Positions 2,777-64,000 of a stretch of DNA of 64,000 bases are shown in pieces. Position numbers and translations under genes: made by a program. Each line of letters opens with the position of its first letter. The first letter of the stretch is position 1. This DNA is from Candidatus Latescibacterota bacterium (GTDB taxonomy: Bacteria; Latescibacterota; UBA2968; UBA8231). Where the stretch lies: assembly GCA_965200315.1 (NCBI GenBank), contig OZ241362.1, positions 1,568,001 through 1,632,000 of the forward strand. Reading direction: 5' to 3'. The notes under the pieces were generated by a model that was not told the DNA's origin, did not search any database, and was given only the letters and a program-made list of their open reading frames with translations.

Positions 2777-3664
2777 CTACTGGACAATTTGGGTGCCAAT
2801 GCCCTTCCGAGTGTAAAACTCGAGCAACATCGCATGCGGCACACGCCCGTCAATAACGTGGGTTTTGCGTACGCCAGCTTTGACGGACTTGACACAAGCT
2901 TCGACTTTGGGAATCATCCCACCGCTGATCACGCCTTGGTCCATTAGCTCGCTCACCTCAGAGACGCGCACGGTTGACAGCAGGGACGCATCGTCTGCGA
3001 GATCGCGCATAATGCCTTGCACGTCCGTCAAAAAGACTAACTTTTCAGCGTGCAGGGCCGCGGCGATTCCCCCGGCCGCCGTATCGGCATTGACGTTAAA
3101 GCCCTCGCCCTCCGGGCCGCGGCCAATCGGTGCAACCACCGGAATCATACCCTTGGCTATCAAGTCCAATAAAGGCGCGGTGTCCACGTGCTGGACATCG
3201 CCGACATAGCCGATGTCCAAGGGACCGCCATCGGTTTGGACCCAGTGCTTGCGCACCTGCATAATCCCAGCGTCCTTGGCCGAGACGCCCACGGCCCGCC
3301 CGTCTAGCGCACCAATCTCGCGGACGATCCGCGCATTAACCTCGCCAAAGAGCACATCTTCGACCACCTTCATCGTGGCTGCGTCTGTCACCCGCAATCC
3401 AGCTACGCGCTGGCTTTCAAGGCCTAGCTCTTGCAGGCGGCGGGTGATGGCCGGGCCGCCGCCGTGGACCACGACCGGACAGATGCCGACCGCCTGCATG
3501 AAGACGATGTCCTTATATACGGTGTCCCCGCTGCCCATCGTGCTGCCGCCGTATTTGACGACCATCACTTTGCCGCAAAATTCCTGTAAGTACGGCAGGG
3601 CCTCAATCAGAGTTTCGGCTTTGCCGATCTGGATCTGCAAGTCCTGCAAGATCTCGGCGTTCAT
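2777..3664 (-). CDS. argB: Acetylglutamate kinase
   Basis: VVKYGG, VHGGGP, NVNADTAA, GGMIPKV. Likely ATG at 3664 overlapping the argR stop. Confidence 0.96.
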   Translation of the reverse strand: MNAEILQDLQIQIGKAETLIEALPYLQEFCGKVMVVKYGGSTMGSGDTVYKDIVFMQAVGICPVVVHGGGPAITRRLQELGLESQRVAGLRVTDAATMKVVEDVLFGEVNARIVREIGALDGRAVGVSAKDAGIMQVRKHWVQTDGGPLDIGYVGDVQHVDTAPLLDLIAKGMIPVVAPIGRGPEGEGFNVNADTAAGGIAAALHAEKLVFLTDVQGIMRDLADDASLLSTVRVSEVSELMDQGVISGGMIPKVEACVKSVKAGVRKTHVIDGRVPHAMLLEFYTRKGIGTQIVQ

Positions 3665-13196: not shown

Positions 13197-16100
13197 TCAG
13201 TCCAAGTCATTCGATCCATCTGTTATGTCTAATTCGCAGGTATCAACTAATTCATTGAGAATTGCATGCCCCCTTCCACGCTTCTCGAAAATGTTTGCCG
13301 CTTCTAAATGCGGCAATTTCTTCACAGTCTCCACCGTCTCCACGCTCACCGCGATTACCTTCTGAAGCAGCTTGACGATGTATTGCGGGTCGTCAGCGCG
13401 GTTCGGATCGTTGACAATGCCGCTGCGCTTGTCTGTCTTGACGGCGTATTGATCGACGACCCATTCCAACGCCGACCGATTACCCAGCCGATAGTCCAAC
13501 GCTTCCGGTGGAATCCCGGCAAGCGTCAAGAAATCGTTATATCTGATCTGCGTCTTGTCTTTGGACAGCTGCATCTTTTCGACGCGCCAGTCGAGCGGCA
13601 AGTCCGGGTTTTCGACAAACTCAAGCGGATGTTCCGGTACGTCGTCATAGCCGACGTGCATCTCGGCCAACCGCTTGCCCATTTTCACATAAGCCCAAAA
13701 ATCCGGCTCGTAGGGAATGCGTGGCAATTCTAACTTGAGATTGGCTCGATAGCACTCGCGGTATGCCGGGTGGTGCAACAGCGCGTACACATAGTGAAAG
13801 ATGTCCCATTTGCTAATGTTGTCGTCTTGGTAGTTCAAGCGAAAACGCGCCAGCACTATATCTGTTATATTCTCGCGGCGATTCGCGCCGTCTTCGCCGT
13901 ACGTATAGAAGGGGAAGCATTGAGAGCTATCAAGGGATGTTAGTGAAAGATTGGAGATTGTGTCCGTGCAAAAACACCAATAATCAGCGCGTCCTCCAGC
14001 TCCCGGAACAACTATCGTTTGATTTTCCGTCTCACTCTTAGGTGTGGGAAAAATAGCTGGAAATACTCCCACCCTATCGTTGATTGCGTTGTGAAAATAG
14101 AGATGAGATTTTGTAAAGGGTCGATAGAGTGAATGCCGTATTCTCTCCTCTGCAAACTCTGCGGTTTTTCCTCCTCTCAACTTATTTTTTAGTGTTGAAC
14201 TCCACTTAATTTTTGCGTTATCACACTCTACAAAATCATCGACTTTTTTCTTGCGCTCTGTCCGTTTCCATCTATCGACCTCTGCGTTATAAGTTCCAAT
14301 CATCCGCTGGATGTTCTCAGCGAGCGCGTCTCGGTCGAAATTGTACACCCAAGCGTCTCGACCTGTATTGACACCGCTACTATACGTCTGAAAAATCACC
14401 GCTTCCTTGCTCTCTCCCGCCTTCGCTTCTTTAGTACCCATAGGCAGAAACGCAGCAAATTCCCTGTTGTGCAGCCCCTCGGTAAGCCAAGAATGTCGCT
14501 CGTCCGGCACAATCTCCTTCCATTCTACATTCCCACAATGTCCCTTCTTGTCGAGATAGCTATACTTCTCTTCCTTGCGCCAGTCCCTATCGACACAAGA
14601 ATAGAAAATTTTCGCCGCTGTCTCCACGTCCCCTCGGCTCTTTACAAAAAAGTTAATACTCACTCCAACCTGAATCCCAAAGACATTGTGCGTCGTGCCA
14701 GAGAGCTTTGGATTCTTGCGAACATTCCCGCCCAAGTCGAGCACGTACATTGTGGAGAAATCGTCTACGAGATGCTTCCGCATCCCATCAAACGCTACCC
14801 CGTCGAGAAAACCATTATTCGTTACGAATGCAACAATCCCTTCCGCGCCGATTCGATCCGCAGCCCACCGAATCGCCTTTACGTACGGGTCTTGTAGCTG
14901 TCTCTTGAGCGTCGCCTGCGAGTCTTTCGCATAGGTATTCCTCACCCGTGTATCCATCGCATTGTACTTTCGATTCTTGTTGTTGTCATTCTCGTTGACC
15001 TGACCGACGTTGTACGGCGGATTGCCAATGACAACGAACATATCCGTTTCCTTTTGCTTCTCAACTCGCGCCGTATTCTCCGCCGTGAATAGGGCCATTT
15101 GCTCATCTTCTGCCAACTCAAACGTATCCACTAAGCATATCCCTTCAAACGGTTGATAATATCCCGTTGCCTCATAAGACTCATGTTCAATGTTCATAGA
15201 CGCTATGTAATACGGTAGAAGCATCACCTCATTGCAATGAAGTTCAGACGAGTACTTGTCTTCGAGTGCGGTCCGGCGAATTGCACACATCGTGCGGACG
15301 ATGAAATTGCCCGTGCCGACAAATGGGTCGATAATGTGAACGCCGGCGTCGGAAAGCGAGCGGTCAAACTCGGTCTTTAGAATGTGCTCAACGCTCTTTA
15401 CCATAAAATCGACAATCGGCTGCGGCGTATACACAATGCCATGCGTATCGGCCACTGCAACCGAGAAGCCCTGAAAAAATTGCTCGTACACGGTGTTGAG
15501 GAAGTGTTGTTTTTTCGAAAAGTCATTGATCGTTTCCGCCGTGCGCTCAATGGCACTATAGAAGCGATTGAGGCTTTCGAGAAAATCGCGCTTACTAAAC
15601 GACTGCGAAGTAAGTGCGTCGATGACTTTTTCGATTTCGTTGGCGATAACGTTGCGGCGAGTGAAATCGGGATTGCTAAAGACGGTTCGGAAAATGCGCT
15701 CGGTCAAAAGATGCTGAATGAGCATCTCCTCGACAGCGGCTTCCGAGAGATTGGGGTTGATCGAGGAGCGACACTTTTCGAGGAAGTCTGCAAAGACGGC
15801 GGTAAACCGGCCGTTGGTCCGTCGTTCCTGTTGAATTTTCGCTGCCAATCCACGCCCGATATCGGGCACCTTGTCTTTGAACTGCGCGACCGCCTCTTCC
15901 CATTCGGCGATCGCCTGCGGACGGTATAAAAAGAAGGCTTCGAGCGTTTCAACCAGTCGTTTTGGATCGGTTAGGTCCTCGTCTAAAATGCGCTCGCCAT
16001 TCTGCCAAAGAATCGCCCGTTTTGGCGTTTGGAATAGGATATTGTCGCTGGGATAACTTGCTGCAAACTTGCGCTGCACTTCGGTTGGCAGATCGTCGTG

Positions 16101-51612: not shown

Positions 51613-53028
51613 ATGCACGAGCTCAACCTATTAAGAGCCGGGGCGTCGATGATCGACATCACCCCGCCCGCAGGTACGCATTTAGCAGGCAGCGGGGCTG
51701 GCGAGCACCGCCCGGCCCAAGCCGTGATGGATCCGCTCTTTGCCAAGGCTATCGTCTTTGAGGCCGGCGAGCAGCGCGTCTGCATGGTGATCTTGGATCT
51801 CACCATTGTCACCAGCGACTACACGGACCAAATCCGCGCCGCCATCAGCGAGCAAACGGACATCGCATCCGAGGCGATCATGGTCCAAGCGACCCAAACG
51901 CACTCCGCCCCGAGCCTCGGTTACTTCATGCTGGACCCAGATTTCCCATTGGAGACCACCGCCGAGACCGAGTATCTGCGCGGAGCCGAGCGCACCTACG
52001 GCGACCGGGTCGCTACTGCCGCAGCCGAAGCGGCAGTCGAAGCGGCGGACAAGCTGCAACCTGCACGCATCGGTTTGGGGCGCGGCGTGTTGGGGGATTT
52101 GGCCTTCAATCGCCGCGGCATACGCCGGGACGGCACCATCGCCATGCCCAAGCCACTAGGTCGGGAGCAGCAGCCGTTTGGGATCGCGGATGTCTGCTAC
52201 CTCGAAGGGCCGATGGACCCGGAAGTCGGCGTGTGCTGCGTCCAAGATATGAATATGAAGCCGCTGGCCTTTCTCCTGCACTACACCTGCCATCCGGTCA
52301 ATGCGTTTGGATATCCCGAGACCTACCGGGCCGTGTCGGCGGATTGGCCTGGCGCTTGGACGCGACAGATGCAGCAGCTATTCGGCTCTGACGCCGTGCC
52401 ATTGGTCGTCAACGGCTGTTGCGGCAACATCAACCCCTGGCATCCCTTTGACCCAGATTGCCGGCCGGATCACCAGAGAATGGGGCGCGAATTGGCCCAG
52501 ATGAGCGAACGAATCGTGCACAATATGGCATTTGCCAACGACGCGGCATTGGATTGTAGAGTCAAAAAGATCGGCCTGCCCTTGCGCGATATTCCGGCCA
52601 AGCGGTTGCGCGAGGTCAACGCGATTCTCGCTGAGAATCCGCAACCGCCGCGCAGAGCAAACGGCGAAGTGGATCCTCACTGGTTCCGGGCCGCATCGAC
52701 CCACAGCGTCGAACTATGCCGACAGCGAGACGGCGAGTTCCCCTATGAGATTCAGGCTTTCCGCATCGGCGACCTCGGCGTAATTGGCCTACCTGGGGAA
52801 CCTTTTGTCGAAGGACAACTCGCGCTCAAAACGAACTCAGCGGCCCCTTTTCTCTTTCCAGCGCACCTCACCACTCACTATGTCGGCTACCTGCCGACGC
52901 GAGCAGCCTATGCCCGAGGCGGACACGAGGCCAACGAAGACGTTACCTACTGGGCCAAGCTTGCCCCCGGCAGCCTCGAAACGGTCGTCGAACAGGCCCG
53001 GACGCTGGTAGAAGAATTATTCGCATGA
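51613..53028 (+). CDS. Neutral/alkaline ceramidase-like hydrolase
   Basis: IDITPP, DPLFAKA, ATQTHSAP, YTCHP, SADWPG, GCCGNINP, LPGEPF, GYLPT. Confidence 0.75.
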   Translation: MHELNLLRAGASMIDITPPAGTHLAGSGAGEHRPAQAVMDPLFAKAIVFEAGEQRVCMVILDLTIVTSDYTDQIRAAISEQTDIASEAIMVQATQTHSAPSLGYFMLDPDFPLETTAETEYLRGAERTYGDRVATAAAEAAVEAADKLQPARIGLGRGVLGDLAFNRRGIRRDGTIAMPKPLGREQQPFGIADVCYLEGPMDPEVGVCCVQDMNMKPLAFLLHYTCHPVNAFGYPETYRAVSADWPGAWTRQMQQLFGSDAVPLVVNGCCGNINPWHPFDPDCRPDHQRMGRELAQMSERIVHNMAFANDAALDCRVKKIGLPLRDIPAKRLREVNAILAENPQPPRRANGEVDPHWFRAASTHSVELCRQRDGEFPYEIQAFRIGDLGVIGLPGEPFVEGQLALKTNSAAPFLFPAHLTTHYVGYLPTRAAYARGGHEANEDVTYWAKLAPGSLETVVEQARTLVEELFA

Positions 53029-55082
53029 ACCATTTATCAAACGCATCCCTCGTCGCCGCAATAACCCTATTCATTGGTGCGGTCCCCTCCTTGGCTGAAG
53101 AAGGAATGCAGCCGCGAGTCGCGATCATCACTGGCGAATTTCGGGAGCCCCGCTCGCGGGAAATCGGAATCCAATACGACTCTGCTCTGTCCCCGGCGCA
53201 GACTACGTCCCGCATCGTCCTAGACGAGCAGAACCGCTTCTCCCTCTCAGTGCCCACTGCTTGGGGGACCCTCGTCATCGGACGGTACGAAAGCGGGTTC
53301 CCTAGCTTGTGGCAGCTACTGAAATTCATGGTCTTTGACAAGCGAGATCTGTTCACCTTCTATGTCGAACCCGGCGACAGTTTGCACATCGTCGTGAAGG
53401 AGGGCTTTTTCGGGCCTTCCTATTCGTTTAGCGGCTCAGGAGCCGACAATAACCGCTTCGTGGTCGAATGGATGTCCGAATTCGGTCCCTTCAGTCTAGA
53501 CTACAAGGCGCTAGAAATCGCGGATTTCAAGCGCCAAATAGATCAGCGGCGGCAAGACCAGTTCGAGTTTCTGGGCGAGGGACGCGAGGAATACGCACTC
53601 ACCCCGGGATTTGTCGATTATGCTACGGCATTCATCAATTACGAATGGGCCCAACGCATGGTTTCCTACCCGAGGCGTTACTATCGCGCCAATGGACGCA
53701 AGAACAAAGCTATTGTGCCGGCCTACTACGACTTCCTGCTAGATGTTCCTCTAGCGGACGAAAAGGCCATAGGCACGCCAGATTATGACACATTTGTGGG
53801 GCTTGCGCTCGACTGGTTTGCAAAGATGGAAAAGGAAGATAGAGAGGAACGCAAATTTCCTGCCATGTCTAAGCGGCTGAAACTGTCACAGTACGGCTTG
53901 TCGGATTCGGCCCAAGCTCGATTTGATTCAATCTACCAAAAGAACAACGCTCCTATCCTAGGCCTGTCACAGCGAATCGATTTGTCTCGGTACGGTCTGT
54001 CGGATTCGCTCCAAGCGCAGCTCGATTCAAGTTACGAAAAGGCCGAAAAACCAAAACTGTCCGAACAATTCGACTTGGCGCGGCTGGGCGCGTCGCAAGC
54101 AAAGCAAGCCCGCCTCGACTCGCTGTATGCACAGACCAGATCCTTTAGGGAAAGTACCTATCCAAGTGAAGACGCGCCGAGAGTCGATACTACGGACGGA
54201 AAGGTGGTCTTTCACCTCGCCAAAAAAGGACAGTGGCAAGATTTCGCCAAGACGCGCAAGCTATCCGAGAAAATCGATATGTCGGGATTGGGTCTGTCGG
54301 ATTCGCTCCAAGCGCAGCTCGATTCAAGTTACGCAAACCACAAATCTCGTAAGCTGTCGGACATCATCGATCTAGCGCAGTTCGATTTGTCGGCAACAGC
54401 TCAAGCCCGCCTCGACTCGCTGTTCGCCGAACCACTAGGCTGGACGACCTATGATTTTGCGCAGCGATATGACCAAGCGAAAAAATCCATGGAGGGGCGG
54501 GTGCTATACTGGTATCTGGCTGGGCAGGTAATCAAGGGATTTGAGGGTGGTAGCGAGCAATTTGAGCGAGCCCGCGAAAAGTGGGAGGATTTCAAGAAAA
54601 TCAACCCGTACCCAGAATACACCGCGGAGATCGCAGCGGCGTTGCACAAGGCCCTTCGTCTGCGCCCTCGGCAACCTGCCCCCGATTTTACCCTCTCCGA
54701 CCTCGACGGCCAACCAGTATCCCTGAGTCAGTTCAAAGAGAAGGCGGTATTCTTGGATTTCTGGGCAAGTTGGTGCGGACCGTGTATCAGTAACTTGGCT
54801 TTTCTCCGGCAGATCAAAGCGCAAATGGCTGACCAGCAGGTCGTGTTCCTCAATATCTCGTTGGACGAAAGCGATTCCGCTTGGCGCAAGGCCATCGCCG
54901 AACACGGGATCAAAGGCGTCCACGTGCGGGCGCACGGATGGGGATCCGAAGTGGCGAAAAGCTATAACGTGACGAGGCTGCCCGAGTACTATATAGTGGA
55001 CGCGCAGGGATTGATTGCGGAGCATCCATCTACAGTACGCGATACAGACGAGATTATAGCAACGATCGAAAAGAGCTTGTGA
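53025..55082 (+). CDS. Exported TlpA-like thiol-disulfide oxidoreductase with long N-terminal region and internal repeats
   Basis: Signal peptide; APDFTL, LDFWASWCGPC. Confidence 0.82.
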   Translation: MNHLSNASLVAAITLFIGAVPSLAEEGMQPRVAIITGEFREPRSREIGIQYDSALSPAQTTSRIVLDEQNRFSLSVPTAWGTLVIGRYESGFPSLWQLLKFMVFDKRDLFTFYVEPGDSLHIVVKEGFFGPSYSFSGSGADNNRFVVEWMSEFGPFSLDYKALEIADFKRQIDQRRQDQFEFLGEGREEYALTPGFVDYATAFINYEWAQRMVSYPRRYYRANGRKNKAIVPAYYDFLLDVPLADEKAIGTPDYDTFVGLALDWFAKMEKEDREERKFPAMSKRLKLSQYGLSDSAQARFDSIYQKNNAPILGLSQRIDLSRYGLSDSLQAQLDSSYEKAEKPKLSEQFDLARLGASQAKQARLDSLYAQTRSFRESTYPSEDAPRVDTTDGKVVFHLAKKGQWQDFAKTRKLSEKIDMSGLGLSDSLQAQLDSSYANHKSRKLSDIIDLAQFDLSATAQARLDSLFAEPLGWTTYDFAQRYDQAKKSMEGRVLYWYLAGQVIKGFEGGSEQFERAREKWEDFKKINPYPEYTAEIAAALHKALRLRPRQPAPDFTLSDLDGQPVSLSQFKEKAVFLDFWASWCGPCISNLAFLRQIKAQMADQQVVFLNISLDESDSAWRKAIAEHGIKGVHVRAHGWGSEVAKSYNVTRLPEYYIVDAQGLIAEHPSTVRDTDEIIATIEKSL
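53865..54425 (+). repeat. Five copies of a ~24-aa coding repeat, including a 297-bp-period duplication
   Basis: Consensus LSxxIDLSxxGLSDSxQAxLDSxY; identical 43-mers at 53994-54036 and 54291-54333. Confidence 0.85.
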
Positions 55083-55138: not shown

Positions 55139-55810
55139 CTAGTCGCTAAACGCCTTGAACGCTAGCCCGGCAATCGCTAAGATCGTCGTTATCTGGAGCG
55201 GCACAACCCAGCGGTATAATCGGTCAATTTTGGTCTCCAGCGACTCCCGAGTAGCGTCGATTTTACCGTCCAGTGCCGCATGGGTGGCGTCGATTTTGGT
55301 CTCCAGCGACTCCCGAGTGGTGTCAATTTTGCCGTCCAATGCCGCATGGGTGGCGTCAATTTTACCGTCCAGTGCCACGCGATTAGCGTCAATTTTGGTC
55401 TCCAGCGACTCCCGAGTAGCGTCAATTTTGCCGTCCAGTGCCGCATGGGTGGCGTCAATTTTACCGTCCAGTGCCACGCGATTAGCGTCAATTTTGGTCT
55501 CCAGCGACTCCCGAGTAGCGTCGATTTTGCCGTCCAGTGCCGCATGGGTGGCGTCGATTTTGGTCTCCAGCGACTCCCGAGTAGCGTCAATTTTGCCATC
55601 GAGCCCCTCACGGGTGGCGTCGATTTTGCCGTCCAGTGCCACGCGATTAGCGTTAATTTCGCCATCGAGCCCCTCCCGCGTCGCGTCGATTTTGGTTTCG
55701 ATGCGCCCTAGCCGCACGTCGATTTGCTCGACAATGCCCTCCAGCCGGGCGATGCGCCCCTCGTGGTCTAATGGATACGGACGCTCTGGCGGCGGATGGT
55801 GCTCACTCAC
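55139..55810 (-). CDS. KID-repeat coiled-coil protein with C-terminal TM anchor (Bdr/DUF1640-like)
   Basis: GGAGG RBS, GTG start, 14 x 11-aa repeats, hydrophobic tail. Confidence 0.82.
   Translation of the reverse strand: MSEHHPPPERPYPLDHEGRIARLEGIVEQIDVRLGRIETKIDATREGLDGEINANRVALDGKIDATREGLDGKIDATRESLETKIDATHAALDGKIDATRESLETKIDANRVALDGKIDATHAALDGKIDATRESLETKIDANRVALDGKIDATHAALDGKIDTTRESLETKIDATHAALDGKIDATRESLETKIDRLYRWVVPLQITTILAIAGLAFKAFSD
55232..55693 (-). repeat. 33-bp coding tandem repeat x14
   Basis: Units KIDATREGLDG, KIDANRVALDG, KIDATRESLET, KIDATHAALDG. Confidence 0.95.
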
Positions 55811-55867
55811 GATCCGACCTCCTCGGTGTTAAAGCGTGAACAGCGCGAAACCCCCTGCACCGGATAT

Positions 55868-55883
55868 TGCAAGATCCATGCCA
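55868..55883 (-). promoter_or_regulatory. Sigma54 (-24/-12) promoter
   Basis: Minus strand TGGCATGGATCTTGCA matches TGGCAC-N5-TTGCW with one mismatch; 57 bp upstream of the KID gene. Confidence 0.7.
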
Positions 55884-56059
55884 CGGCGACCGTGCAGTGG
55901 GGAGGACGGGGCCGTGCGGGTCAGACTGTATCGGGCACAACCCATCCATGAGACCTTTAGGAAGCACCCTCTAAGGGTAGTGAGTCGGGTTGAAAATTTC
56001 AATCCCTTGGTAAAGCTGGGTATCCACGGGTGATCAACTATATGGATGCTCCCACCTCG

Positions 56060-57091
56060 TCAGCTACTAAACCCAATTTCGCGCTCCCCCCTGTCGGCCG
56101 CCTCCTGAATGCGAATGACGTTACGCGTCGAGTGCAGTACCGCAGCGGTGTCGAGGCCGTTGGTGGGCACTTCGCCGGCGATATCGTCGAGGAAGGAGCG
56201 CAGGTAGCCGCCCCGTTGAGCCGGGGGTAGCGGCTCGACATGCACGGTGGCGTCTTCCCTGCCGAGCACTTGAATATCCTTGGCCGTAGTCGCAGTCTCG
56301 ATTACTCCATCCCTTCCCCAAAACGCAGTTCGCCAGTAATAGGGCATCGTATAGCCCGCCCTATCGGGTGCGAAGTACGACACGTCGCCTAAGACCCCGC
56401 AGCCGTTGTCCATCTCCAGCATCATCTGCCCGGCATCCTGCATGTGAAGGTCTTGGGGAACAAAGGCCCGCCAGCAGCGGGCGGCGTTGATTTTCGCCCA
56501 CTGGCGGCCTGTGACCCAAGGCAAAGCGTCGATGGCGTGGATGCCAATATCGGTGATGGTGCCGCCGTGCTTGCCCTGTTCAAAATACCAGCCGGGCCGC
56601 TCGCCCAAGAGCAGCGGGTGTTGGCCACCAAAAGCGATGGCGTGAACTTCGCCAATGCGGCCGGCTTGGATCAGGTTGCGCGCGCCGATAAACGCAGCCG
56701 CATCGCGCATGGTCAACATGCAGCCGACTTTGAGGTTTTTCTCGTGCGCCAGCACCTCAATGCGGTCGAGATCGGCCATCCGAGTACACAGAGGTTTGTC
56801 GCTGATAACGTGTTTGCCGCGGGCGAGGGCTTCGATTAGCACGGGGCCGCGACCGGCGAAATAGGTGCCAGTCGCGACAATATCGCAGTCCACCTCGTCG
56901 AGCATCTGCTCGATCCGGTCGTGGGTGATTGCGGCAGTGCCCTTTGCGTGGATTTCGGCGCACGTCTCCGCGTGTTCCTCGCACGCAGCTACCACTTCGA
57001 GTGCGGGCGAGGCGCAGGCTAGTGAGTAGAGGTCGAAAATGTGACCGTGGCAGAAGCCGGCGAAGGCAATTTTGTGAGGGGCTTCACTCAT
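56060..57091 (-). CDS. Gfo/Idh/MocA family oxidoreductase
   Basis: IAFAGFCHGH, GKHVISDKPL, GGTITDIGIHAID. Confidence 0.88.
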   Translation of the reverse strand: MSEAPHKIAFAGFCHGHIFDLYSLACASPALEVVAACEEHAETCAEIHAKGTAAITHDRIEQMLDEVDCDIVATGTYFAGRGPVLIEALARGKHVISDKPLCTRMADLDRIEVLAHEKNLKVGCMLTMRDAAAFIGARNLIQAGRIGEVHAIAFGGQHPLLLGERPGWYFEQGKHGGTITDIGIHAIDALPWVTGRQWAKINAARCWRAFVPQDLHMQDAGQMMLEMDNGCGVLGDVSYFAPDRAGYTMPYYWRTAFWGRDGVIETATTAKDIQVLGREDATVHVEPLPPAQRGGYLRSFLDDIAGEVPTNGLDTAAVLHSTRNVIRIQEAADRGEREIGFSS

Positions 57092-57103
57092 CCCTACCTC
57101 TGA

Positions 57104-57236
57104 TCACGATTCCTCTTCCTCGTCGCCGTACGAGTGCCCGCCGAAAATGGCCCGCAGTTCGGCCGCGGAGGTGGCTTGGCGCATCTGGGCCATGCGCACG
57201 GCCTCGTGTTTTTGCAGAGCGCGGACGTTTTCCAGC
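57104..57236 (-). repeat. Direct repeat, copy 1: orphaned 3' end of the RraA-family gene
   Basis: 133 bp matching 57616-57748 with 4 mismatches, including the stop codon. Confidence 0.95.
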
Positions 57237-57246
57237 CACAGACCAG

Positions 57247-57534
57247 CTAGCCGAACAGTTTTAAGGCCCCGATTAGGCCCCACGTCGCCACGTGCAGGGC
57301 AATGACCCACCGCAAGAGCTCTTTGCGCGTGTCGCCAATGGCTTGGCGGTTGGCGTCAAGCTTCGTTTCAAGCTCTTTGCGCGTGTCGCCAATGGCTTGG
57401 CGGTTGGCGTCAAGCTTCGTTTCGACGCGACCTAGCCGGACATCGACTTGCTCAATAATACCTTCGAGTCGGGCGATGCGCCCTTCGTGATCTAACGGAT
57501 AGGGCCGCTCCGGCGGCAAAGAGGGCTCAGTCAT
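57247..57534 (-). CDS. Short paralog of the KID-repeat tail-anchored coiled-coil protein
   Basis: Shares PPERPYPLDHEGRIARLEGI with 55139-55810; 2 x 54-bp repeat ETKLDANRQAIGDTRKEL (57316-57423); AAGGAG RBS. Confidence 0.82.
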   Translation of the reverse strand: MTEPSLPPERPYPLDHEGRIARLEGIIEQVDVRLGRVETKLDANRQAIGDTRKELETKLDANRQAIGDTRKELLRWVIALHVATWGLIGALKLFG

Positions 57535-57615
57535 AATCGAAGCTCCTTTTAATACTTAGAGAATATAGGGACCGGTGGTTAGAATCATAGGGGTACTCAT
57601 ATCAAGCACCGTGTC

Positions 57616-57748
57616 TCACGATTCCTCTTCCTCGTCGCCGTACGAGTGCCCGCCGAAAATGGCCCGCAGTTCGGCCGCGGAGGTGGCTTGGCGCATCTGG
57701 GCCATGCGCTCGGCCTCGTGTTTTTGCAGGGCGCACACGTTTTCCAGC
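57616..57748 (-). repeat. Direct repeat, copy 2: current 3' end of the RraA-family gene
   Basis: Offset 512 bp from copy 1. Confidence 0.95.
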
Positions 57749-58344
57749 ACCGCGCTGAGCTTGTCGGCGGGGAATTTCACCGCGCCGTTTTCATCCATGT
57801 GGATGATCTCGCCGGGTGCCACGTCCATGCTGGCGACCGAGACCGGCACATTGACCGCGTGGATGGCTTGGGCACCGTGACCCGCGGTGACGCCGCTGAG
57901 CAAGTACTGGAACTTCATCGGGCGAATCTCGTCGATGTCGCGCGAGGGCCCGTTGGAAATCGCGCCGACGCAGCCAATGGCCTGCATGGCCGTGGTCATG
58001 TTGCCGCCGGCTAGGCCGACCTTGCCTTGGATTTCGGGCGGGAATTTCTGCTGGAAGACCAAGATCGTCGGCTTGGGCGAGGCGTCGAGGGCGTCGAGAA
58101 CGTCCATGAAGCTAACGCCATTGTAATTGGGGTCGGGCAGGCCGTAGGTGCAAGTGACCGCGTAGCCGACCGTGGGGCCGAGCTCGGGATACATACAGCG
58201 CAGCGACTGATCGGTGTACCAGTTTTCGCTCCAGGGATTGTATAGCCCCAAGCACAAGGGATCGCCCGGATAGGTGGCGACGACATTGGTAATGGAAGGC
58301 GTGTCGAAGTTTTTCAGCTCGTCGAGCATTTCTTGTTCAGTCAT
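57616..58344 (-). CDS. RraA/HMG-aldolase family protein
   Basis: DTPSITN, TVGYAVT, GGNMTTA..GCVGAISNGPSRDIDE, VAPGEIIHMDENGAV. Confidence 0.85.
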   Translation of the reverse strand: MTEQEMLDELKNFDTPSITNVVATYPGDPLCLGLYNPWSENWYTDQSLRCMYPELGPTVGYAVTCTYGLPDPNYNGVSFMDVLDALDASPKPTILVFQQKFPPEIQGKVGLAGGNMTTAMQAIGCVGAISNGPSRDIDEIRPMKFQYLLSGVTAGHGAQAIHAVNVPVSVASMDVAPGEIIHMDENGAVKFPADKLSAVLENVCALQKHEAERMAQMRQATSAAELRAIFGGHSYGDEEEES

Positions 58345-58777
58345 TAGAAGCTCCTGATTGGGTAATAGAAAAGATCAACCCGCGTCCATCGCGTTCCTCA
58401 TTTTGCACACGGTAAAATAGATGCGCAGAGATAATGAGCATCGCGAGTACGATCGCAAGTTTGCCGCCTAGTAAGTCCCCAACGAACAAGGCTGGCAAGG
58501 TCGCTATAATTCCGCTGATTAATGCCGCGCTGTACAGCAGGAAAACGTGCCACCACTTAAAATGCCAACGGCTCAGAGCACTTCCTCCTTGCGTCGTCGC
58601 TTTCTTCTTTAGTGCATGATAAAAGAGGATAGCAGATGCGAAGAGCATCGCGAGGCCGATCAAATAGGCACCTATTACGCCTATCTCACTCTCAGTAATG
58701 GCCGTCACAGCATTGATGATGATCAGCGCACCATACAGTGCGAAAAAATGCCACCGCTCAACGTTCCAATGGCTCAT
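58337..58777 (-). CDS. Hypothetical 4-TM membrane protein with internal two-fold repeat
   Basis: MSHWNVERWHFFALY versus LSRWHFKWWHVFLLY; AGGAG RBS; more AT-rich than the flanks. Confidence 0.62.
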   Translation of the reverse strand: MSHWNVERWHFFALYGALIIINAVTAITESEIGVIGAYLIGLAMLFASAILFYHALKKKATTQGGSALSRWHFKWWHVFLLYSAALISGIIATLPALFVGDLLGGKLAIVLAMLIISAHLFYRVQNEERDGRGLIFSITQSGASND

Positions 58778-58803
58778 GGCAATCGCTCCTATTTACAGTG
58801 GTT

Positions 58804-59616
58804 CTAGTGCTGATCGCGGCGCGGCAATATCGGCTGATTCTTCAGCTCGCGGATTAGCTCTACAAGCCCCTCGGTCGCCGCTGCTAAAAACTTTTCGCCC
58901 TTTTCCTTGGTAGCTTTAGTCGCGTCGCCTACTACCCCGCTGGCCGTCTGCTGGCTCCAGTAGGGTATCAGCCGCGCACCCGATCCCTCGGGGTGCGTGC
59001 CACCCAACAGGTCGGTGCGGAAACTCGGCGACAGCGGCGAGCGCTCGTCAACGGCCTTGTCCATTTCCACGAGTTCCGGCTTGAGCGCGAGATAGAGCGA
59101 GGTTTCGTATTCGCCACCGTGCGAAGTTCCGCCGTAGGACGAGTCGCGCAGTTCGTTGCCCACGGTCTTGGCGCGGCGTATATCCCAGTGATTGACCGAG
59201 GCGCAGAGGATCTGGCCCTCGTACTCGAGGACGGTGAGGCGGGCCGCCAAGTCGAGCGGCGAGGTGTTGGAGCCGTGGCCATTGACGAGGAGGATGCGCT
59301 TAAAGCCGTGGTGGGCCAAGCTGCAACACACGTCCTTGACGTAGCGGATAAAGGTGTCCCACTCAATAGTCAGGGTGCCGTGGAAATCCATGTGGTGCGG
59401 ACTGTAGCCGTGGGTGACGGGCGGGGCGAGCACGGCTTCTTCCGGGATGCGAGCCACGGCGCGCTCGCAGATGCCGTGGCACAGCACCACGTCCGTATCC
59501 ACCGGCAGATGCGGGCCGTGGTCTTCGTGGGTGGCAACGGGCAGCACGGCCACGCGGCCAGCGGCCGCGGCGTCACGGGTCTCGTTCCAGATCATTTCAG
59601 CGTAGCGATATTTCAC
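58804..59616 (-). CDS. Creatininase family amidohydrolase
   Basis: EDHGPHLPVDTD, GYSPHH, VNGHGSN, HGGEYETS, SGVVGDA. Confidence 0.9.
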   Translation of the reverse strand: MKYRYAEMIWNETRDAAAAGRVAVLPVATHEDHGPHLPVDTDVVLCHGICERAVARIPEEAVLAPPVTHGYSPHHMDFHGTLTIEWDTFIRYVKDVCCSLAHHGFKRILLVNGHGSNTSPLDLAARLTVLEYEGQILCASVNHWDIRRAKTVGNELRDSSYGGTSHGGEYETSLYLALKPELVEMDKAVDERSPLSPSFRTDLLGGTHPEGSGARLIPYWSQQTASGVVGDATKATKEKGEKFLAAATEGLVELIRELKNQPILPRRDQH

Positions 59617-59702
59617 GAGTTTCGCTCCTCACAGCAGTAGGGTTGGATCGGAGATGTGGAAAGAAGTACGCAATTGGCACAGCAGGGGCAAGTTGCCGTT
59701 CC

Positions 59703-59731
59703 TCGACAGTTTTTGGCATCCCTTCTATATT
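59703..59731 (+). promoter_or_regulatory. Sigma70-type promoter of ddl
   Basis: TCGACA, 17-bp spacer, TATATT. Confidence 0.5.
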
Positions 59732-59773
59732 GTTAGAAGAGGCAACTTAACCTAACCGAAGGAACAGCAATAC

Positions 59774-60868
59774 ATGGGTCGCAAGATACGCCTCGGTGTG
59801 CTCTGCGGCGGGCGCTCGGCCGAGCACGAGGTCTCGGTCATCTCGGCGCGCTCGATGTTGGAAGCCATCGACAAGGACAAGTACGAACTAGTGATGATCG
59901 GCATCTCCAAAGAAGGACGCTGGCTGTCCGCCGCAGACACTCAGCAGCTTCTGGCGTCCGGTCAAGTCCACGAGGATGGGCTAACGCCGGTGGCGCTGGA
60001 CTATCTAGGAACGCGCACACTCGTGGCGCAGCAAGGCGATTGGCAGGACCAACCGCTCGACGCAATCTTCCCCCTCCTGCACGGCCCCTACGGCGAAGAC
60101 GGCACTGTGCAGGGCCTGATGGAACTAGCCAACATAGCGTATGTGGGGGCCGGGGTCGTCGGCTCGGCCGTGGGCATGGACAAGGAGCTGATGAAGCGGG
60201 TTTTCAAAGCCGAAGGGCTACCGCAAGTGGACTACCAGGTAGTGCGGCGCAGTCGGTGGGAAAAGGACCGCGCCGGGATGCACGCCGCGATCGAAGCCGC
60301 GCTGGCCTACCCCGTCTTCGTCAAGCCGGTGAATCTTGGTTCGAGCGTCGGGGTGAGCAAGGCCCGCAATGAGGCCGAATTGGAGCAGGCCATCGACAAA
60401 GCAGCGCAATACGACTACAAGATCGTGGTCGAGGCCGAAGCGAGCGGCTGCCGCGAGGTCGAAGTGGCTATCTTGGGCAACGAGTCGCCAGAAGCGTCCA
60501 TCACCGGTGAAATCGTACCGGGCAACGACTTTTACGACTACAACGCCAAATACATCGACGACAACTCCGATCTGATCATTCCGGCGCGCACCTCGCCAGC
60601 CACCCAAGAGGCCGTGCGCGAGCTGGGCATTCGGGCCTTTCAGGCGGTGGAAGCCTGGGGATTGGCGCGGGTGGATTTTTTCGTGCGCGAAAGCGACGAG
60701 GCGATTTTCATCAACGAGATCAACACCATGCCGGGGTTTACGCCCATCAGCATGTATCCCAAGCTGTGGGAGGCGAGCGGCGTGAGCTACGGGATGTTGA
60801 TCGACCGCTTGGTCCAGTTGGGGATCGAGCGGCACGAGGACAAGCAGAAGACGAAGACGGCGCGGTAA
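59774..60868 (+). CDS. ddl: D-alanine-D-alanine ligase
   Basis: GGRSAEHEVS, LHGPYGEDG, GSSVG, FYDYNAKY, NEINTMPGFT. Confidence 0.96.
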   Translation: MGRKIRLGVLCGGRSAEHEVSVISARSMLEAIDKDKYELVMIGISKEGRWLSAADTQQLLASGQVHEDGLTPVALDYLGTRTLVAQQGDWQDQPLDAIFPLLHGPYGEDGTVQGLMELANIAYVGAGVVGSAVGMDKELMKRVFKAEGLPQVDYQVVRRSRWEKDRAGMHAAIEAALAYPVFVKPVNLGSSVGVSKARNEAELEQAIDKAAQYDYKIVVEAEASGCREVEVAILGNESPEASITGEIVPGNDFYDYNAKYIDDNSDLIIPARTSPATQEAVRELGIRAFQAVEAWGLARVDFFVRESDEAIFINEINTMPGFTPISMYPKLWEASGVSYGMLIDRLVQLGIERHEDKQKTKTAR

Positions 60869-60872
60869 GTCC

Positions 60873-61580
60873 ATGCAGAAAACGCGGTGGGAAAAGGGCA
60901 ACGTCAGCAACCTAATTTCGTTTGCCCTGTTGGTGGCGGGCCTTTGGGGGCGCGTTGAGGGGATCGCTGGCAGCGAGTGGGTGCTAGCGGTTGGATTGTT
61001 TGGCTTTGCTGGCGGCGCGACCAACTGGTTGGCCGTGAAGATGCTCTTCGACCGCGTGCCTTTGCTGTACGGATCGGGGGTAATTCCGGCGCGATTTCGC
61101 GCCATCCGGGAAGCGGTCAAAGACGCCATCATGCGCTACTTCTTCGACGAGGAGTATCTAGAGCGATTCTTCGCCGAGCGGATGGCTGGAGACGATGTGG
61201 GGGAAAAGGTGCAAAAGGTGCTAGCGTCCGAAGAAGTTGACGCAATCATCGACCGCAAGCTCGAAGAGCTGGCCGAATCACCGCAAGGAATGATGCTTCA
61301 GTTGGTGGGGACGCAGACGGTCAAGCCGCTGGTCAAGCAGTTCGTGATCGGGTTCGGGAGCGAGATCGCGCCGCTTTTGGCCAGCGAAGCGGGCACAGAA
61401 GTCGGAGCGATGCGGACGCAGGTTGACGGATTGCTGGAGACCAAGTTAGAGGAGCTAACGCCCGACCGCGTCAAGGAGATGATGGAGGAAGTAATCCGCG
61501 AGCACTTGGGCTGGCTAATCGTCTGGGGCAATGTGTTCGGCGGCACTATTGGACTATTATCTAAAGCACTGGGGTATTGA
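60873..61580 (+). CDS. DUF445 family membrane protein
   Basis: GGATNWLAVKMLF; HLGWLIVWGNVFGGTIG. Confidence 0.8.
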   Translation: MQKTRWEKGNVSNLISFALLVAGLWGRVEGIAGSEWVLAVGLFGFAGGATNWLAVKMLFDRVPLLYGSGVIPARFRAIREAVKDAIMRYFFDEEYLERFFAERMAGDDVGEKVQKVLASEEVDAIIDRKLEELAESPQGMMLQLVGTQTVKPLVKQFVIGFGSEIAPLLASEAGTEVGAMRTQVDGLLETKLEELTPDRVKEMMEEVIREHLGWLIVWGNVFGGTIGLLSKALGY

Positions 61581-62389
61581 AAATGAGTCAATGGAATCTA
61601 CAGGGCGAAGTGGCAGCGGTCATCGGCGGCACCGGCGTATTGGGCGGGGCAATGGTCCAAGGCTTGGCCAAGGCCGGAGCCTCCGTAGCAGTGTTGGGGC
61701 GAGATCACGCCCGGGGGAATAAACGAGTAGCAGCCATAGAAGCAGCAGGAGGCACGGGCGTTTTCGCCGCCTGCGACGCCACGGATAAGGCATCGCTCAA
61801 GGCAGCCCATGCAGCGGTGGTCGCGGCGTTAGGTCCCGTCAACGTGCTACTCAACGCCGCCGGTGGCAATCAGCCACAGGTGACCTTGAACGACGACCTA
61901 GATTTTGCCGCGATAACGACCGACGATTGGCAGCGCTGTTTCGACCTGAACTTGGGGGCCGGCGCGCTGTTACCCTGCCAAGAATTCGGATCGGCCATGG
62001 TCGCACGGGGCCGGGGCAGCATCATCAACATCGCTTCGGTCGCCGCCCACCTGCCGGTTTCGCGAGTGGTGGCATACTCCGCGGCCAAAGCGGCCGTATT
62101 GAACCTAACGCAGTTTCTCGCGCGGGAGTGGGCCGACAAAGGCGTACGGGTCAACTCCATCACTCCGGGCTTTTTCCCCGCCGAGCAAAACCGCCGCCTG
62201 CTCTTTGCAGAAGACGGCACCCCAACCGAGCGCGGCCAACAAATCCTCTCCCACACGCCCATGAACCGCTTTGGCCACCCCGAGGAACTAGTCGGCGCAG
62301 CCGTGTTCCTCGCGTCGGATGCGGCCAGCGGCTTCGTCACCGGCACGGACATCCGCGTTGACGGGGGGTTTTTGACGACGACGATCTAA
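61577..62389 (+). CDS. Short-chain dehydrogenase (sugar-acid oxidoreductase-like)
   Basis: GGTGVLG, NAAGGN, YSAAK, ITPGFF, VDGGF. Confidence 0.9.
   Translation: MKMSQWNLQGEVAAVIGGTGVLGGAMVQGLAKAGASVAVLGRDHARGNKRVAAIEAAGGTGVFAACDATDKASLKAAHAAVVAALGPVNVLLNAAGGNQPQVTLNDDLDFAAITTDDWQRCFDLNLGAGALLPCQEFGSAMVARGRGSIINIASVAAHLPVSRVVAYSAAKAAVLNLTQFLAREWADKGVRVNSITPGFFPAEQNRRLLFAEDGTPTERGQQILSHTPMNRFGHPEELVGAAVFLASDAASGFVTGTDIRVDGGFLTTTI
62352..62389 (+). repeat. Direct repeat, copy 1 of the SDR 3' end
   Basis: TCCGCGTTGACGGGGGGTTTTTGACGACGACGATCTAA. Confidence 0.85.
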
Positions 62390-62391
62390 AA

Positions 62392-62757
62392 TCAAATATC
62401 TTCGATGGCGTCTGGCTCAGGCATCTGTGCAAATTGGACGGCCTTGATAGTCGCAGTACCTTCGAGCAAGGCTCGAGCTAGACGGTGCCCGCCGTCCATC
62501 AGACGGCCGTTCTCGTTTATAACAACGGGGAATTCGGTGTTGGCCTCGTTGATCCGTTTGCAGTGAGCGGCCACCTCTCGGATGGTCGGCGGACGATTCG
62601 CACCAAACCAGCAGTTCTGGTCCAGTTCCTGAAAACTCTCCACCTCGACTGCAAATTCGGGTAGTTCTTGGGCTAGCTTCCATAGCCGGTCCGTGTACCA
62701 GATGTACCTCTTACCCTTGATTTCCGTCGAGTGGGTTTGTCGTCTATGCCTCTGCAA
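62392..62757 (-). CDS. Small ParB/Srx-like domain protein
   Basis: FPVVI..LMDGGHRLARA; AAGGAGAG RBS, TTG start. Confidence 0.68.
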   Translation of the reverse strand: MQRHRRQTHSTEIKGKRYIWYTDRLWKLAQELPEFAVEVESFQELDQNCWFGANRPPTIREVAAHCKRINEANTEFPVVINENGRLMDGGHRLARALLEGTATIKAVQFAQMPEPDAIEDI

Positions 62758-62779
62758 TGCTTCTCTCCTTTTGGCTTTC

Positions 62780-62824
62780 GCTTAACGTTCTCGGCACCCT
62801 CGAACCAAGGGTGCCGCGTTAGCT
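62780..62824 (-). mobile_element. Short attC-like recombination site
   Basis: Minus strand AGCTAAC-G-CGGCACCCT-N7-AGGGTGCCG-AGAAC-GTTAAGC between two co-oriented small genes. Confidence 0.5.
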
Positions 62825-62841
62825 GAAGTTGATCTGTCTAG

Positions 62842-63456
62842 CTAATCAACGAGATGCTCCTTGATAGAGTCGAACCACTCTGCAAATGGTTCCTGCAATT
62901 GAGGATCTTCGGTCAACGGATGCCACATTAGGACAAACTTGTGGTGATCAGAAAAGACTTCCCACTCAAGCTCATCACTTGCCGTGCAACGCAATTGATA
63001 GTGCTTGCGCTCAACAGTGGTCGTCAGAGCATCTTCTGGTATCCAGCCAGTTATTTGAAACGAGATTCTATCCGAACCGAGCCGCTCTTTTTCCACATAA
63101 TTGATTTGTACAAAACCGTTTTCAGCCTCTCGTGTACCAACGCGAATACCTCTTCGAATTGTGACCCAATCGAAACTGCCAGTGTCTGGTCGAGAATATA
63201 CAGTGGAAGTCTTCTCGATGACGGCTGTGTTGGGAGGTAGCTTCTCCCGTTCCGACAAAAGTTCCGCGACAACATGCAGTGCGGCTAGGCCCGTTTCTTC
63301 GCGGGCCTCCCGGAGTGCCGCGGCGACAAAGGATTCTCCCTTTTCCACTGTCCCGGCAGGTATTTGATTGCCGGCGTAGGGGTGCTTTAGTAGGAGAACG
63401 TGCTTTCGACTGTCCAAGCTACGCGTTATAAAACAAGTGACCTTGCCCAGCGACAT
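62842..63456 (-). CDS. NUDIX hydrolase
   Basis: PAGTVEKGESFVAAALREAREETGL Nudix box; more AT-rich than the flanks. Confidence 0.85.
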   Translation of the reverse strand: MSLGKVTCFITRSLDSRKHVLLLKHPYAGNQIPAGTVEKGESFVAAALREAREETGLAALHVVAELLSEREKLPPNTAVIEKTSTVYSRPDTGSFDWVTIRRGIRVGTREAENGFVQINYVEKERLGSDRISFQITGWIPEDALTTTVERKHYQLRCTASDELEWEVFSDHHKFVLMWHPLTEDPQLQEPFAEWFDSIKEHLVD

Positions 63457-63515
63457 ATCACATTATTCTCTGCATTCCTGATTCAATTTCAGCTAACTAT
63501 TTGTATCCGAACAAG

Positions 63516-63550
63516 TCCGCGTTGACGGGGGATTTTTGCCGACGATCTAA
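63516..63550 (+). repeat. Direct repeat, copy 2: orphaned SDR 3' end
   Basis: TCCGCGTTGACGGGGGATTTTTGCCGACGATCTAA, encoding RVDGGFLPTI*; 2 mismatches and a 3-bp indel versus copy 1. Confidence 0.85.
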
Positions 63551-63553
63551 CGC

Positions 63554-64000
63554 CTATTTCCACAGCAGGCGGAGGTAAAACAGCGGATTGGTCAGCATCT
63601 TGCGCGGCACGGCGTCGGCCATCATGCCGCAGATCAGGTCGCTGACCTCGGCATTTTTGGCGGCCTTGCGAATGACCAAATTCATCAAGTAGGGCCAGCG
63701 GCCCAAATGGTGCAGCTTGGTGCTCAGCTTCAGTTCGCTGCCCAGCGCATTCCACAGCCGATCCTCATAGCACCGCAAAAAGCCAGCCGAATAATCCCCG
63801 GCCTCCCGGGCTTGAGCCGCAGTCCCTACGGCAAAACGGGCCGAGTACACGGCATTGCCAATGCCCTCGCCCGTGAACGGGTCGATCAAACCGGCTGCGT
63901 CGCCCAAGAGCAGAAAGCCATTCCCGTGCGCTAGTCGCCGCCGCGAGCCAACCGGCAAATTCCAACCGACCGGAGCCTCAAGAGGGCGGGCGTCGCGGAA
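63554..64000 (-). CDS. Geranylgeranyl reductase family FAD oxidoreductase, C-terminal part
   Basis: LLLGDAAGLIDPFTGEGIGNAV; runs off the window. Confidence 0.85.
   Translation of the reverse strand, partial: FRDARPLEAPVGWNLPVGSRRRLAHGNGFLLLGDAAGLIDPFTGEGIGNAVYSARFAVGTAAQAREAGDYSAGFLRCYEDRLWNALGSELKLSTKLHHLGRWPYLMNLVIRKAAKNAEVSDLICGMMADAVPRKMLTNPLFYLRLLWK

Follow-up and report, generated by a model that had tools for sequence, protein, structure and literature searches.

How does a gene come to lie directly behind an ordinary metabolic gene, framed by two copies of that gene's end, when no recombinase accompanies it? The question is raised by a stretch of 64,000 nt (here called the window) of contig OZ241362.1 from Candidatus Latescibacterota bacterium, positions 1,568,001 to 1,632,000, which is part of a single-contig genome of 5.36 Mb (G000) of a sponge-associated bacterium. 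Two sites in the window have this architecture. At one, cargo 1 is attached to an RraA-like gene, at the other cargo 2 is attached to a gene for a short-chain dehydrogenase/reductase (SDR). In both cases the host gene, here termed the anchor, is intact, and its last codons including the stop recur beyond the cargo as an orphan 3' end (Table 1). Both structures are probably scars of homology-anchored gene acquisition without a recombinase; we assign this explanation a probability of about 0.7.

The repeat at the RraA-like gene consists of an orphan copy (57104-57236) and a gene-side copy (57616-57748) which are identical in 129 of 133 positions, gapless and spaced by 512 nt. The orphan ends 12 nt ahead of the start of the adjacent Gfo/Idh/MocA oxidoreductase gene (Gfo; 57091). 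The SDR repeat is shorter, 38 nt at 62352-62389 versus 35 nt at 63516-63550, and the copies differ by two mismatches and a single in-frame gap of 3 nt; the TAA of the orphan is 3 nt away from the stop of the convergent reductase gene (63554). At both sites the ancestral spacing to the neighbour was kept. Genomes of relatives contained the corresponding empty sites. An empty RraA-Gfo site was present in 14 of 24 genomes of the same genus, and there the two halves of the query overlapped by 131-144 nt, i.e. by the length of the repeat. The orphan RraA end and the DNA downstream of it were colinear with the empty site of one of the relatives (G002). The empty SDR-reductase site was found in G043, where the query pieces overlapped by 38 nt and the intact SDR stop directly abuts the reductase stop. 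Since anchor and downstream gene are directly adjacent in these relatives, the repeats are not due to chance. Thus, alignments and empty sites, together with the contigs described below, established the repeats and the tight orphan spacing which the original prediction had proposed. Its notion of single-gene cargo was correct for cargo 1, which has one open reading frame (ORF) of 95 aa (57247..57534, minus strand), but not for cargo 2, in which a 121-aa ORF is accompanied by a NUDIX hydrolase gene. Cargo 1 was not at the RraA-Gfo site in any of 40 relatives searched.

Are the structures real? Logan contigs from four public runs of two studies (sponge metagenomes, 'organism B') were used as a check for assembly artefacts. 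Unitigs bridged the joints between orphan and cargo (57168-57346) and between cargo and the RraA-like gene (57394-57645) at the depth of the flanks, and the identical 94-nt core of the RraA repeat had about twice the flank depth. A single contig of 9833 nt covered 57680-64000 with the whole SDR case, and the SDR structure was also present in a variant strain which differs at 25 positions (0.4%). As the same structure was seen in contigs of four runs, it is not an assembly artefact, and the merging of strains, a suspicion voiced at the outset, can be dismissed on account of these independent contigs. No contig of the four runs skipped a cargo or displayed a circle or single-copy joint; contigs drop rare variants and are silent on excision.

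The 13 ORFs between 53025 and 64000 were searched with Pfam and contained no recombinase; specifically, neither the 379-bp nor the 1126-bp insert encodes a transposase or recombinase. In the entire genome we located four tyrosine-recombinase matches (PF00589) at about 0.42, 1.22, 1.69 and 4.97 Mb. None of these is in the window, as had been claimed, and none is within 50 kb of any of the cases reported below. Serine recombinases (PF00239) and reverse transcriptases (PF00078, RVT_1) were absent genome-wide. When the terminal 80 nt on either side of 16 cargos were compared (120 pairs), no common word exceeded shuffled expectation. Likewise, the longest terminal inverted match in these 16 cargos was 0-8 nt, again within shuffled expectation. 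A site-specific integrative element was rejected because there is no recombinase in or beside the element and no common core, and because the anchors are unrelated. A DNA transposon or miniature inverted-repeat transposable element (MITE) was rejected because terminal inverted repeats are missing and the duplications, 26-316 nt, are not of a fixed length. For the RraA repeat we also considered a diversity-generating retroelement. This failed because a reverse transcriptase is absent and the mismatches (T/A, C/T and GT/CC) are not adenine-specific.

A general route should have left further traces in the genome. Crude gene calling gave 4366 genes. The last 240 nt of each gene with 40 nt of flank was compared with the genome (in the control, the first 240 nt), and matches within 6 kb were kept. 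A match was counted as a gene-end repeat when it stopped between -6 and +10 nt from the end of the stop codon. Of 98 same-strand downstream matches of gene ends, 23 stopped at the stop codon. Seven mirror-image controls (upstream, inverted and gene-start searches) gave 5/90, 2/10, 1/6, 6/94, 3/70, 4/11 and 2/16. During curation six of the 23 were dropped: two matches at 1075088, which are 23-24-nt repeats among small ORFs; L017 (1449230), a pair of old tandem paralogues which 17 relatives also have; 1945386, in which a 135-bp 'cargo' with internal tandem repeats is likely a tandem duplication; 2569179, tandem paralogues and likely of the same origin; and L030 (4273710), a rearranged region in which 140 nt past the repeat are also shared by relatives. 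Two more matches represent a single repeat pair, read once from each of two convergent genes. Addition of the SDR case brought the total to 17 loci. The screen itself had overlooked this case, as its ungapped core stops 8 nt short of the stop codon; the number of loci is therefore a lower bound. The repeats at the 17 loci are 26-316 nt long, 86-100% identical and gapless, and the cargos measure 0.35-4.4 kb. The repeats end 0-8 nt past the stop even when the next gene is 93-535 nt away, hence tight gene spacing does not explain the boundary. At six further loci empty sites were identified in relatives. These cases support the original contention that the two sites in the window exemplify one general, integrase-free route.

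What kind of genes did arrive? According to Pfam and PADLOC the cargos encode YefM/YoeB with a helix-turn-helix protein, MazF/PemK, a HicB-like UPF0150 protein, DUF2442/DUF4160, an XRE regulator, two Fic proteins (SoFic and PDC-S04 models), one of which is next to HsdM fragments, an AbiLi-like PDC-M38 pair, a Schlafen/AlbA_2 protein and, at L026, a DNA methylase of 716 aa. Two loci carry metabolic cargo (UxuA, PhyH) of high guanine-plus-cytosine (GC) content. GC was computed for 16 curated loci, and at 12 of them the cargo was at least 0.03 below its flanks. By its low GC and by the genes encoded the cargo looks horizontally acquired. The same cargo was found behind the same anchor without an orphan in nine relatives for L016, in three for L024 and in three for L028; this state is donor-like. 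For L021, the cargo recurs in the relative G008, and its right junction is a different one there. At L028 in G005 the anchor gene is followed by 539 nt and then by a 50-nt gene-end copy joined to the MazF cargo; going by the coordinates only, this gene end with its cargo appears to be a displaced unit. At the HicB-like locus a repeated element of about 125 nt (L022 1395-1518; G000:C1:2656798-2656921) separates the orphan gene end from the gene that follows. It gives matches on both strands, is thus partly palindromic and resembles MITEs or repetitive extragenic palindromes, and recurs in G000 (G000:C1:3411583-3411706, 4524853-4524973, 210368-210441) and in relatives.

The two copies of a repeat have different histories. 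At the four testable loci, L015, L016, L022 and L024, we compared the closeness of each copy to relatives with the level of divergence of the cargo. This procedure replaced a simple derived-state polarity, which gave opposite answers at L015 and L016. At L015 the cargo is 94-97% identical to relatives and the gene about 88-90%; the gene-side copy was closer than the orphan in 26/26 comparisons, and the orphan is 8-15% diverged, matching the gene just upstream. At L022, where the cargo is slightly closer than the core, the gene-side copy was closer in 19/25 with six ties. The converse applied to L016, with a cargo of 83-86% and a gene of 91-92% identity, and L024, with 87% and 92-94%, respectively: here the orphan was closer in 21/22 and in 25/27 with two ties. 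Thus, at all four loci the gene-side copy followed the divergence of the cargo. This indicates that the cargo arrived with its own gene end and that the orphan is the displaced native end, i.e. a replacement of the gene end, as had been proposed. The tracts can be delimited at two loci. The beginning of the imported tract at L015 is no more than about 4 nt from the 5' edge of the repeat. At L016 all seven differences are in the last 30 of 98 nt, where nearly all 22 relatives agree with the orphan; the first 68 nt are identical in both copies. Both place the homologous crossover inside the repeat. The 35-nt SDR orphan has too few sites for polarity.

The SDR site turned out to be a hotspot in the genus with islands from 0 to 14.5 kb. 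They contain methyltransferases, APH-type kinases, a GH5 enzyme, GNAT, AraC, an aldehyde dehydrogenase, a HigB/HigA pair and NUDIX. None of 78 ORFs in these islands of relatives is a tyrosine or serine recombinase; two DDE transposases are present. The cases hence do not appear to be remnants of larger, integrase-bearing islands. Right junctions occurred at about -270, -252, -69, -61/-55/-52, -42 and -35, the last being that of G000, and the orphan SDR ends in relatives are 42, 51-61, 69, 252 and 270 nt long. Arrays of orphans have formed at this anchor, three in G001, two in G012 and two to three in G023. In G022 and G011 a NUDIX cassette is joined just past the SDR stop (roughly 2-6 nt, by eye) and there is no orphan. 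Microhomology at the G000 junction is at most 1-2 nt; at the L016 joint there was none in comparison with the proxy donor G042.

Both the junction and a conserved element of 66-110 nt, termed J, are common to six orphans from four relatives: G001 has three of them, and G010, G013 and G012 have a single one each. J starts with a hairpin and is located in the relatives directly between the cargo and orphan SDR ends of 52-61 nt. In the G001 array J is joined to the SDR end at about -55 three times, between different cargo. The genes downstream of J are unrelated and divergently oriented, encoding NUDIX, a methyltransferase and a protein without assignment. One full copy was found in G000 (3254488-3254596), ahead of a thioredoxin-like gene; neither the RraA case nor the other G000 cases have J. 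A search of the J region in Rfam had no match. J may mark a cassette boundary or serve as a portable promoter or leader. In the window, the last ~26 nt of cargo 2 (63490-63515) correspond to the left arm of the hairpin that opens J in the relatives, and are joined to the orphan. As only this arm remains, the 35-nt orphan of G000 may be a shortened J-type unit. A second multi-copy element, about 135-150 nt long with copies 72-87% alike, was observed at G000:C1:3254338-3254487 and at least 25 other places, e.g. 1141298, 4755000, 972068 and 3886197. One copy adjoins J at 3254 kb, another is in the extra 566 nt behind the orphan of the MazF locus.

How may such a structure arise? Incoming DNA from a related bacterium would bring along an anchor 3' end of its own, with the cargo directly behind it. 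One joint would be formed by ordinary homologous recombination inside this 3' end. At its far end the cargo would undergo an illegitimate join with recipient DNA, some dozens to some hundreds of nt upstream of the anchor stop. The product would be an intact anchor with a partly imported end, then the cargo and then the native end as an orphan, which would still provide the downstream gene with its original context. The repeat would end at the stop because the homology between donor and recipient ends there, and joints falling past the stop would leave no repeat. Once flanked by two gene-end copies, a cassette would need nothing but homologous recombination to move on, to be stacked or to be lost. 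The route of DNA uptake, the enzymes (RecA-type recombination plus an illegitimate join) and the form of the intermediate (linear, circular or a template switch) are what we infer from these structures. ComEC and DprA are encoded in the genome; because 10-11 of 14 control genomes have them too, this lends the explanation only weak support and is no evidence of competence.

Several observations weigh against this explanation. A linear substrate entering by homology-facilitated illegitimate recombination (HFIR) predicts an imported tract upstream of the repeat, and L015 and L016 do not show that. With a crossover inside the repeat, a circular (Campbell-type) or template-switch intermediate fits better, or a later gene conversion is needed. 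A template switch that exits the recipient in the gene end, copies the donor end and the cargo and returns upstream fits L015 and L016; a Campbell-type circle fits L015, but L016 then needs later gene conversion. The junction shared by six SDR orphans is not expected of independent illegitimate joints. The distribution of the repeat differences over codon positions (37/29/72) is too weakly skewed to tell two alleles from decay. A donor was found for neither window cargo. The polarity of the RraA repeat points both ways: of its four differences only, a GT/CC doublet is derived in the gene-side copy, one is derived in the orphan and one is polymorphic. Finally, near-identical repeats elsewhere in the genome (314/316, 26/26, 36/37) are compatible with a duplication de novo.

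The crossovers inside the repeats of L015 and L016 would also suit repeat-flanked cassettes being the mobile form, in which a circle with one repeat copy and the cargo re-integrates by a single Campbell-type crossover and so stacks cassettes. We treat this possible, though doubtful, course as a variant of homology-anchored acquisition which differs in the intermediate; the idea of small circles integrating through homology, raised in the original prediction, is thereby still live as a sub-variant. Reuse of one junction in six orphans is expected from homologous re-insertion of repeat-flanked cassettes, and the J-SDR junction at about -55 does recur three times in the G001 array and again in G010, G013 and G012. 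On the other hand, RecA-type recombination works poorly on repeats of 26-40 nt, a Campbell product should have donor sequence in the first 68 nt of the L016 orphan, where both copies are identical, and the origin of the first repeat-bearing circle is not explained. That the contigs contained neither a circle joint nor a single-copy junction counts weakly, given their loss of rare variants. In published work, circles were proposed for rhs (Jackson et al., 2009, PMC2935791), and a cycle of invasion, amplification and release for repeat-flanked restriction-modification (RM) systems (Furuta et al., 2010, PMC2853133). A wider version, in which gene-end repeats turn accessory genes into recombinase-free mobile cassettes that leave as circles or linear DNA, enter any related genome at the same gene with no more than homologous recombination and form integron-like SDR arrays, we consider rather unlikely. 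Equally unlikely is its corollary that each cassette of the SDR arrays starts with one and the same module of about 125-165 nt, the SDR end plus J; such a module may act as a portable promoter for unrelated genes.

The duplication could instead have been created in the recipient, if a staggered or two-nick break, perhaps provoked by the cargo, was filled in. The copies would then start out identical, and indeed several repeats are identical or nearly so (26/26, 36/37, 27/28, 314/316); double-strand breakage was suggested as a common property behind RM insertions (Furuta et al., 2010, PMC2853133). However, in three of the four tested loci the functional copy has more unique changes than the presumably neutral orphan. 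At L015 the orphan is about 10% diverged at a cargo identity to relatives of 94-97%, so the copies differed already at insertion. Also, a random staggered break leaves unexplained why repeats end 0-8 nt past the stop in spite of gaps of 93-535 nt, and Ku is absent from the genome. Such target duplication is thus highly improbable. Even less credit is due to a dedicated site-specific recombinase or integron-like system acting in trans, with the repeats as attL/attR-like sites and J as recombination site, although the SDR arrays, in which a conserved 66-110-nt element and a 52-61-nt gene end separate different cargos, bear a superficial resemblance to integrons and four tyrosine recombinases are available in the genome. 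The ends of the 16 cargos have no common motif, repeat length varies over 26-316 nt with unrelated target genes, right junctions differ at one and the same anchor, and no recombinase is near any case or in the islands of relatives. J is missing from the RraA and the other G000 cases, and its one full G000 copy is located elsewhere. Further, the different origin of the copies is not predicted by crossover at a fixed core. The trans-acting recombinase invoked earlier is therefore not supported. Tandem duplication with loss or replacement of one copy does occur among the screen matches (L017, 1945386 and 2569179), and together with an assembly or strain-merging artefact it retains practically no probability as a general account. 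For the two window cases it is refuted: the cargos bear no relation to the backbone genes beside them and are missing from the site in relatives, and the structures recur in four runs of two studies, including the 0.4% variant strain, at flank depth and with doubled depth of the repeat core.

Insertion with long target duplication was reportedly treated by Nobusato et al. in 2000. Phage 21 and e14 in icd and the islands in tRNA genes are familiar examples in which an element brings a substitute 3' end and the old end stays as a direct repeat. These use a tyrosine integrase, a fixed att core and one target, whereas here we have neither integrase nor core, but many targets and variable junctions. 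Close to our cases are RM systems whose insertion involved long target duplication, with repeats of 45-423 bp and without mobility genes; some of these repeats overlap 3' ends of genes, and most cases are from naturally competent species (Furuta, Abe and Kobayashi, 2010, PMC2853133). Common to both are direct repeats above 30 bp which are single-copy in the empty-site genome (here 133 nt and 35/38 nt), an insert below 20 kb (379 and 1126 bp) free of other mobile-element genes, varied repeat lengths, selfish modules and cargo of atypical GC. Yet R and M genes are required there, whereas the window cargos encode a coiled-coil protein and a 121-aa protein plus NUDIX, and only one other locus, L026, has a DNA methylase. 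Further, it is the rule here that the repeat ends at the anchor stop, and the copies differ in origin, which argues against simple target duplication.

A comparable displacement of 3' ends was described for rhs C-termini, with a circular intermediate (Jackson et al., 2009, PMC2935791), and HFIR was invoked for orphan arrays in effector-immunity clusters of the type VI secretion system of Vibrio cholerae (Kirchberger et al., 2017, PMC5361080). In these reports, a module enters by homology in the upstream gene, the old 3' part is pushed downstream as an orphan, and repeated events build arrays, as we saw at the SDR anchor; no integrase takes part, and HFIR or a circle is proposed. There, the anchors are polymorphic toxin genes and the incoming end is a different toxin tip, so function changes. 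Here, ordinary metabolic genes receive the same gene end, the gene is unchanged and a direct repeat results. HFIR itself is known from transformable bacteria (de Vries and Wackernagel, 2002; Prudhomme et al., 2002; Meier and Wackernagel, 2003; cited in PMC5361080), and a related study used conjugation in E. coli (PMC3240628). It combines a one-sided homologous anchor with an illegitimate joint of little or no microhomology, as may hold for our cases too, and like these it places foreign DNA beside a conserved gene. Unlike linear HFIR, the crossover at L015 and L016 is inside the repeat, and textbook replacement needs a second step. The mechanism is not new, contrary to what had been suggested: the architecture is already in print (PMC2853133, PMC5361080 and PMC2935791). 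Consequently, the two window cases add examples, not a new principle.

Table 1. Features of the two gene-end repeat sites in the window, and copies of the J element in relatives.
Feature	Position	Strand	Basis
Coiled-coil protein, 223 aa, 33-nt (11-residue) repeats	55139..55810	-	ORF, repeat and Pfam analysis
Gfo/Idh/MocA oxidoreductase, backbone gene downstream of RraA-like gene	56060..57091	-	Pfam/NCBIfam
Orphan RraA-like 3' end (44 codons + stop, 133 nt)	57104..57236	-	repeat alignment
Cargo 1, 379 bp	57237..57615	-	between repeat copies
Intact RraA-like/aldolase-family gene, 242 aa; gene-side copy 57616-57748 is its last 133 nt including stop	57616..58344	-	Pfam
Intact SDR oxidoreductase, 270 aa (NCBIfam D-mannonate oxidoreductase subfamily); gene-side copy is its last 38 nt	61577..62389	+	
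Cargo 2, 1126 bp	62390..63515	-	
121-aa ORF in cargo 2	62392..62757	-	no Pfam match
NUDIX hydrolase in cargo 2	62842..63456	-	Pfam
Orphan SDR 3' end, 35 nt	63516..63550	+	repeat alignment
Geranylgeranyl-reductase-family gene, 3' part, convergent backbone gene; 413 aa in genome, runs past window	63554..64000	-	
J element copies	L070 (G001) 917-1009, 3429-3548, 13251-13356; L071 932-1042; L075 981-1099; L073 7627-7693		

Apart from NUDIX, PADLOC and NCBIfam had nothing for either window cargo, and there was no defence match. The 95-aa product of cargo 1 has a conserved N-terminus and a hydrophobic C-terminal tail. It belongs to no Pfam family; among its Atlas look-alikes are DUF1640-like clusters (0.92, a lead only). 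Two exact copies of a 53-nt repeat, 54 nt (18 codons) apart, occupy 57317-57423 of the ORF. The 81-nt spacer of cargo 1 (57535-57615) has an AAGGAG ribosome-binding site and no second copy genome-wide. The neighbouring 223-aa coiled-coil gene and the cargo-1 gene are paralogues, 77% alike over the first 141 nt, of which 13 nt precede the start; in most relatives the 223-aa gene follows Gfo downstream as a backbone gene. G000 has three more members of this family (2128848, 4580834 and 1623683), one of which is this 223-aa gene; the other copies are at G000:C1:2128848-2128963 and 4580834-4580985. The proteins are small, coiled-coil and membrane-anchored, with a conserved N-terminal part of about 47 residues and variable internal repeats, whose units are 33 nt (at least 12 copies) in one member and 54 nt in another. 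In G007 (L011 3344-5902) two tandem coiled-coil genes are downstream of RraA, together with Gfo fragments; the Gfo gene itself is missing from this place in G007:C2, and three fragments of 41, 41 and 57 nt, left between RraA and the tandem genes, are at about L011 3269-3308, 4983-5022 and 5934-5990. By these fragments, the RraA locus has been reshuffled repeatedly in the genus.

The 121-aa protein of cargo 2 has a 'DGGHR' stretch, and copies of its gene are at other loci in G044, G021, G022 and G011. Its nearest Atlas clusters are viral hypothetical proteins, 16-44% with ParB_N (0.93; a weak lead only). The window also encodes a 685-aa protein (53025-55082, plus strand) whose C-terminal domain is redoxin/thioredoxin-like; its middle (53866-54423) has internal direct repeats of 77-163 nt.

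In bacterial hotspots most accessory and defence genes are without a visible mobility gene, and the route of their arrival is usually deduced from the flanking core genes only. Orphan gene ends are a direct and datable footprint of single acquisitions, marking the homologous side, the illegitimate joint and what arrived. A census of stop-ending gene-end repeats with mirror-image controls is applicable to any genome. About 17 such footprints in one complete genome of an uncultured sponge symbiont, mostly with toxin-antitoxin and candidate anti-phage genes, suggest that homology-anchored insertion is a main route of gene gain in this lineage.

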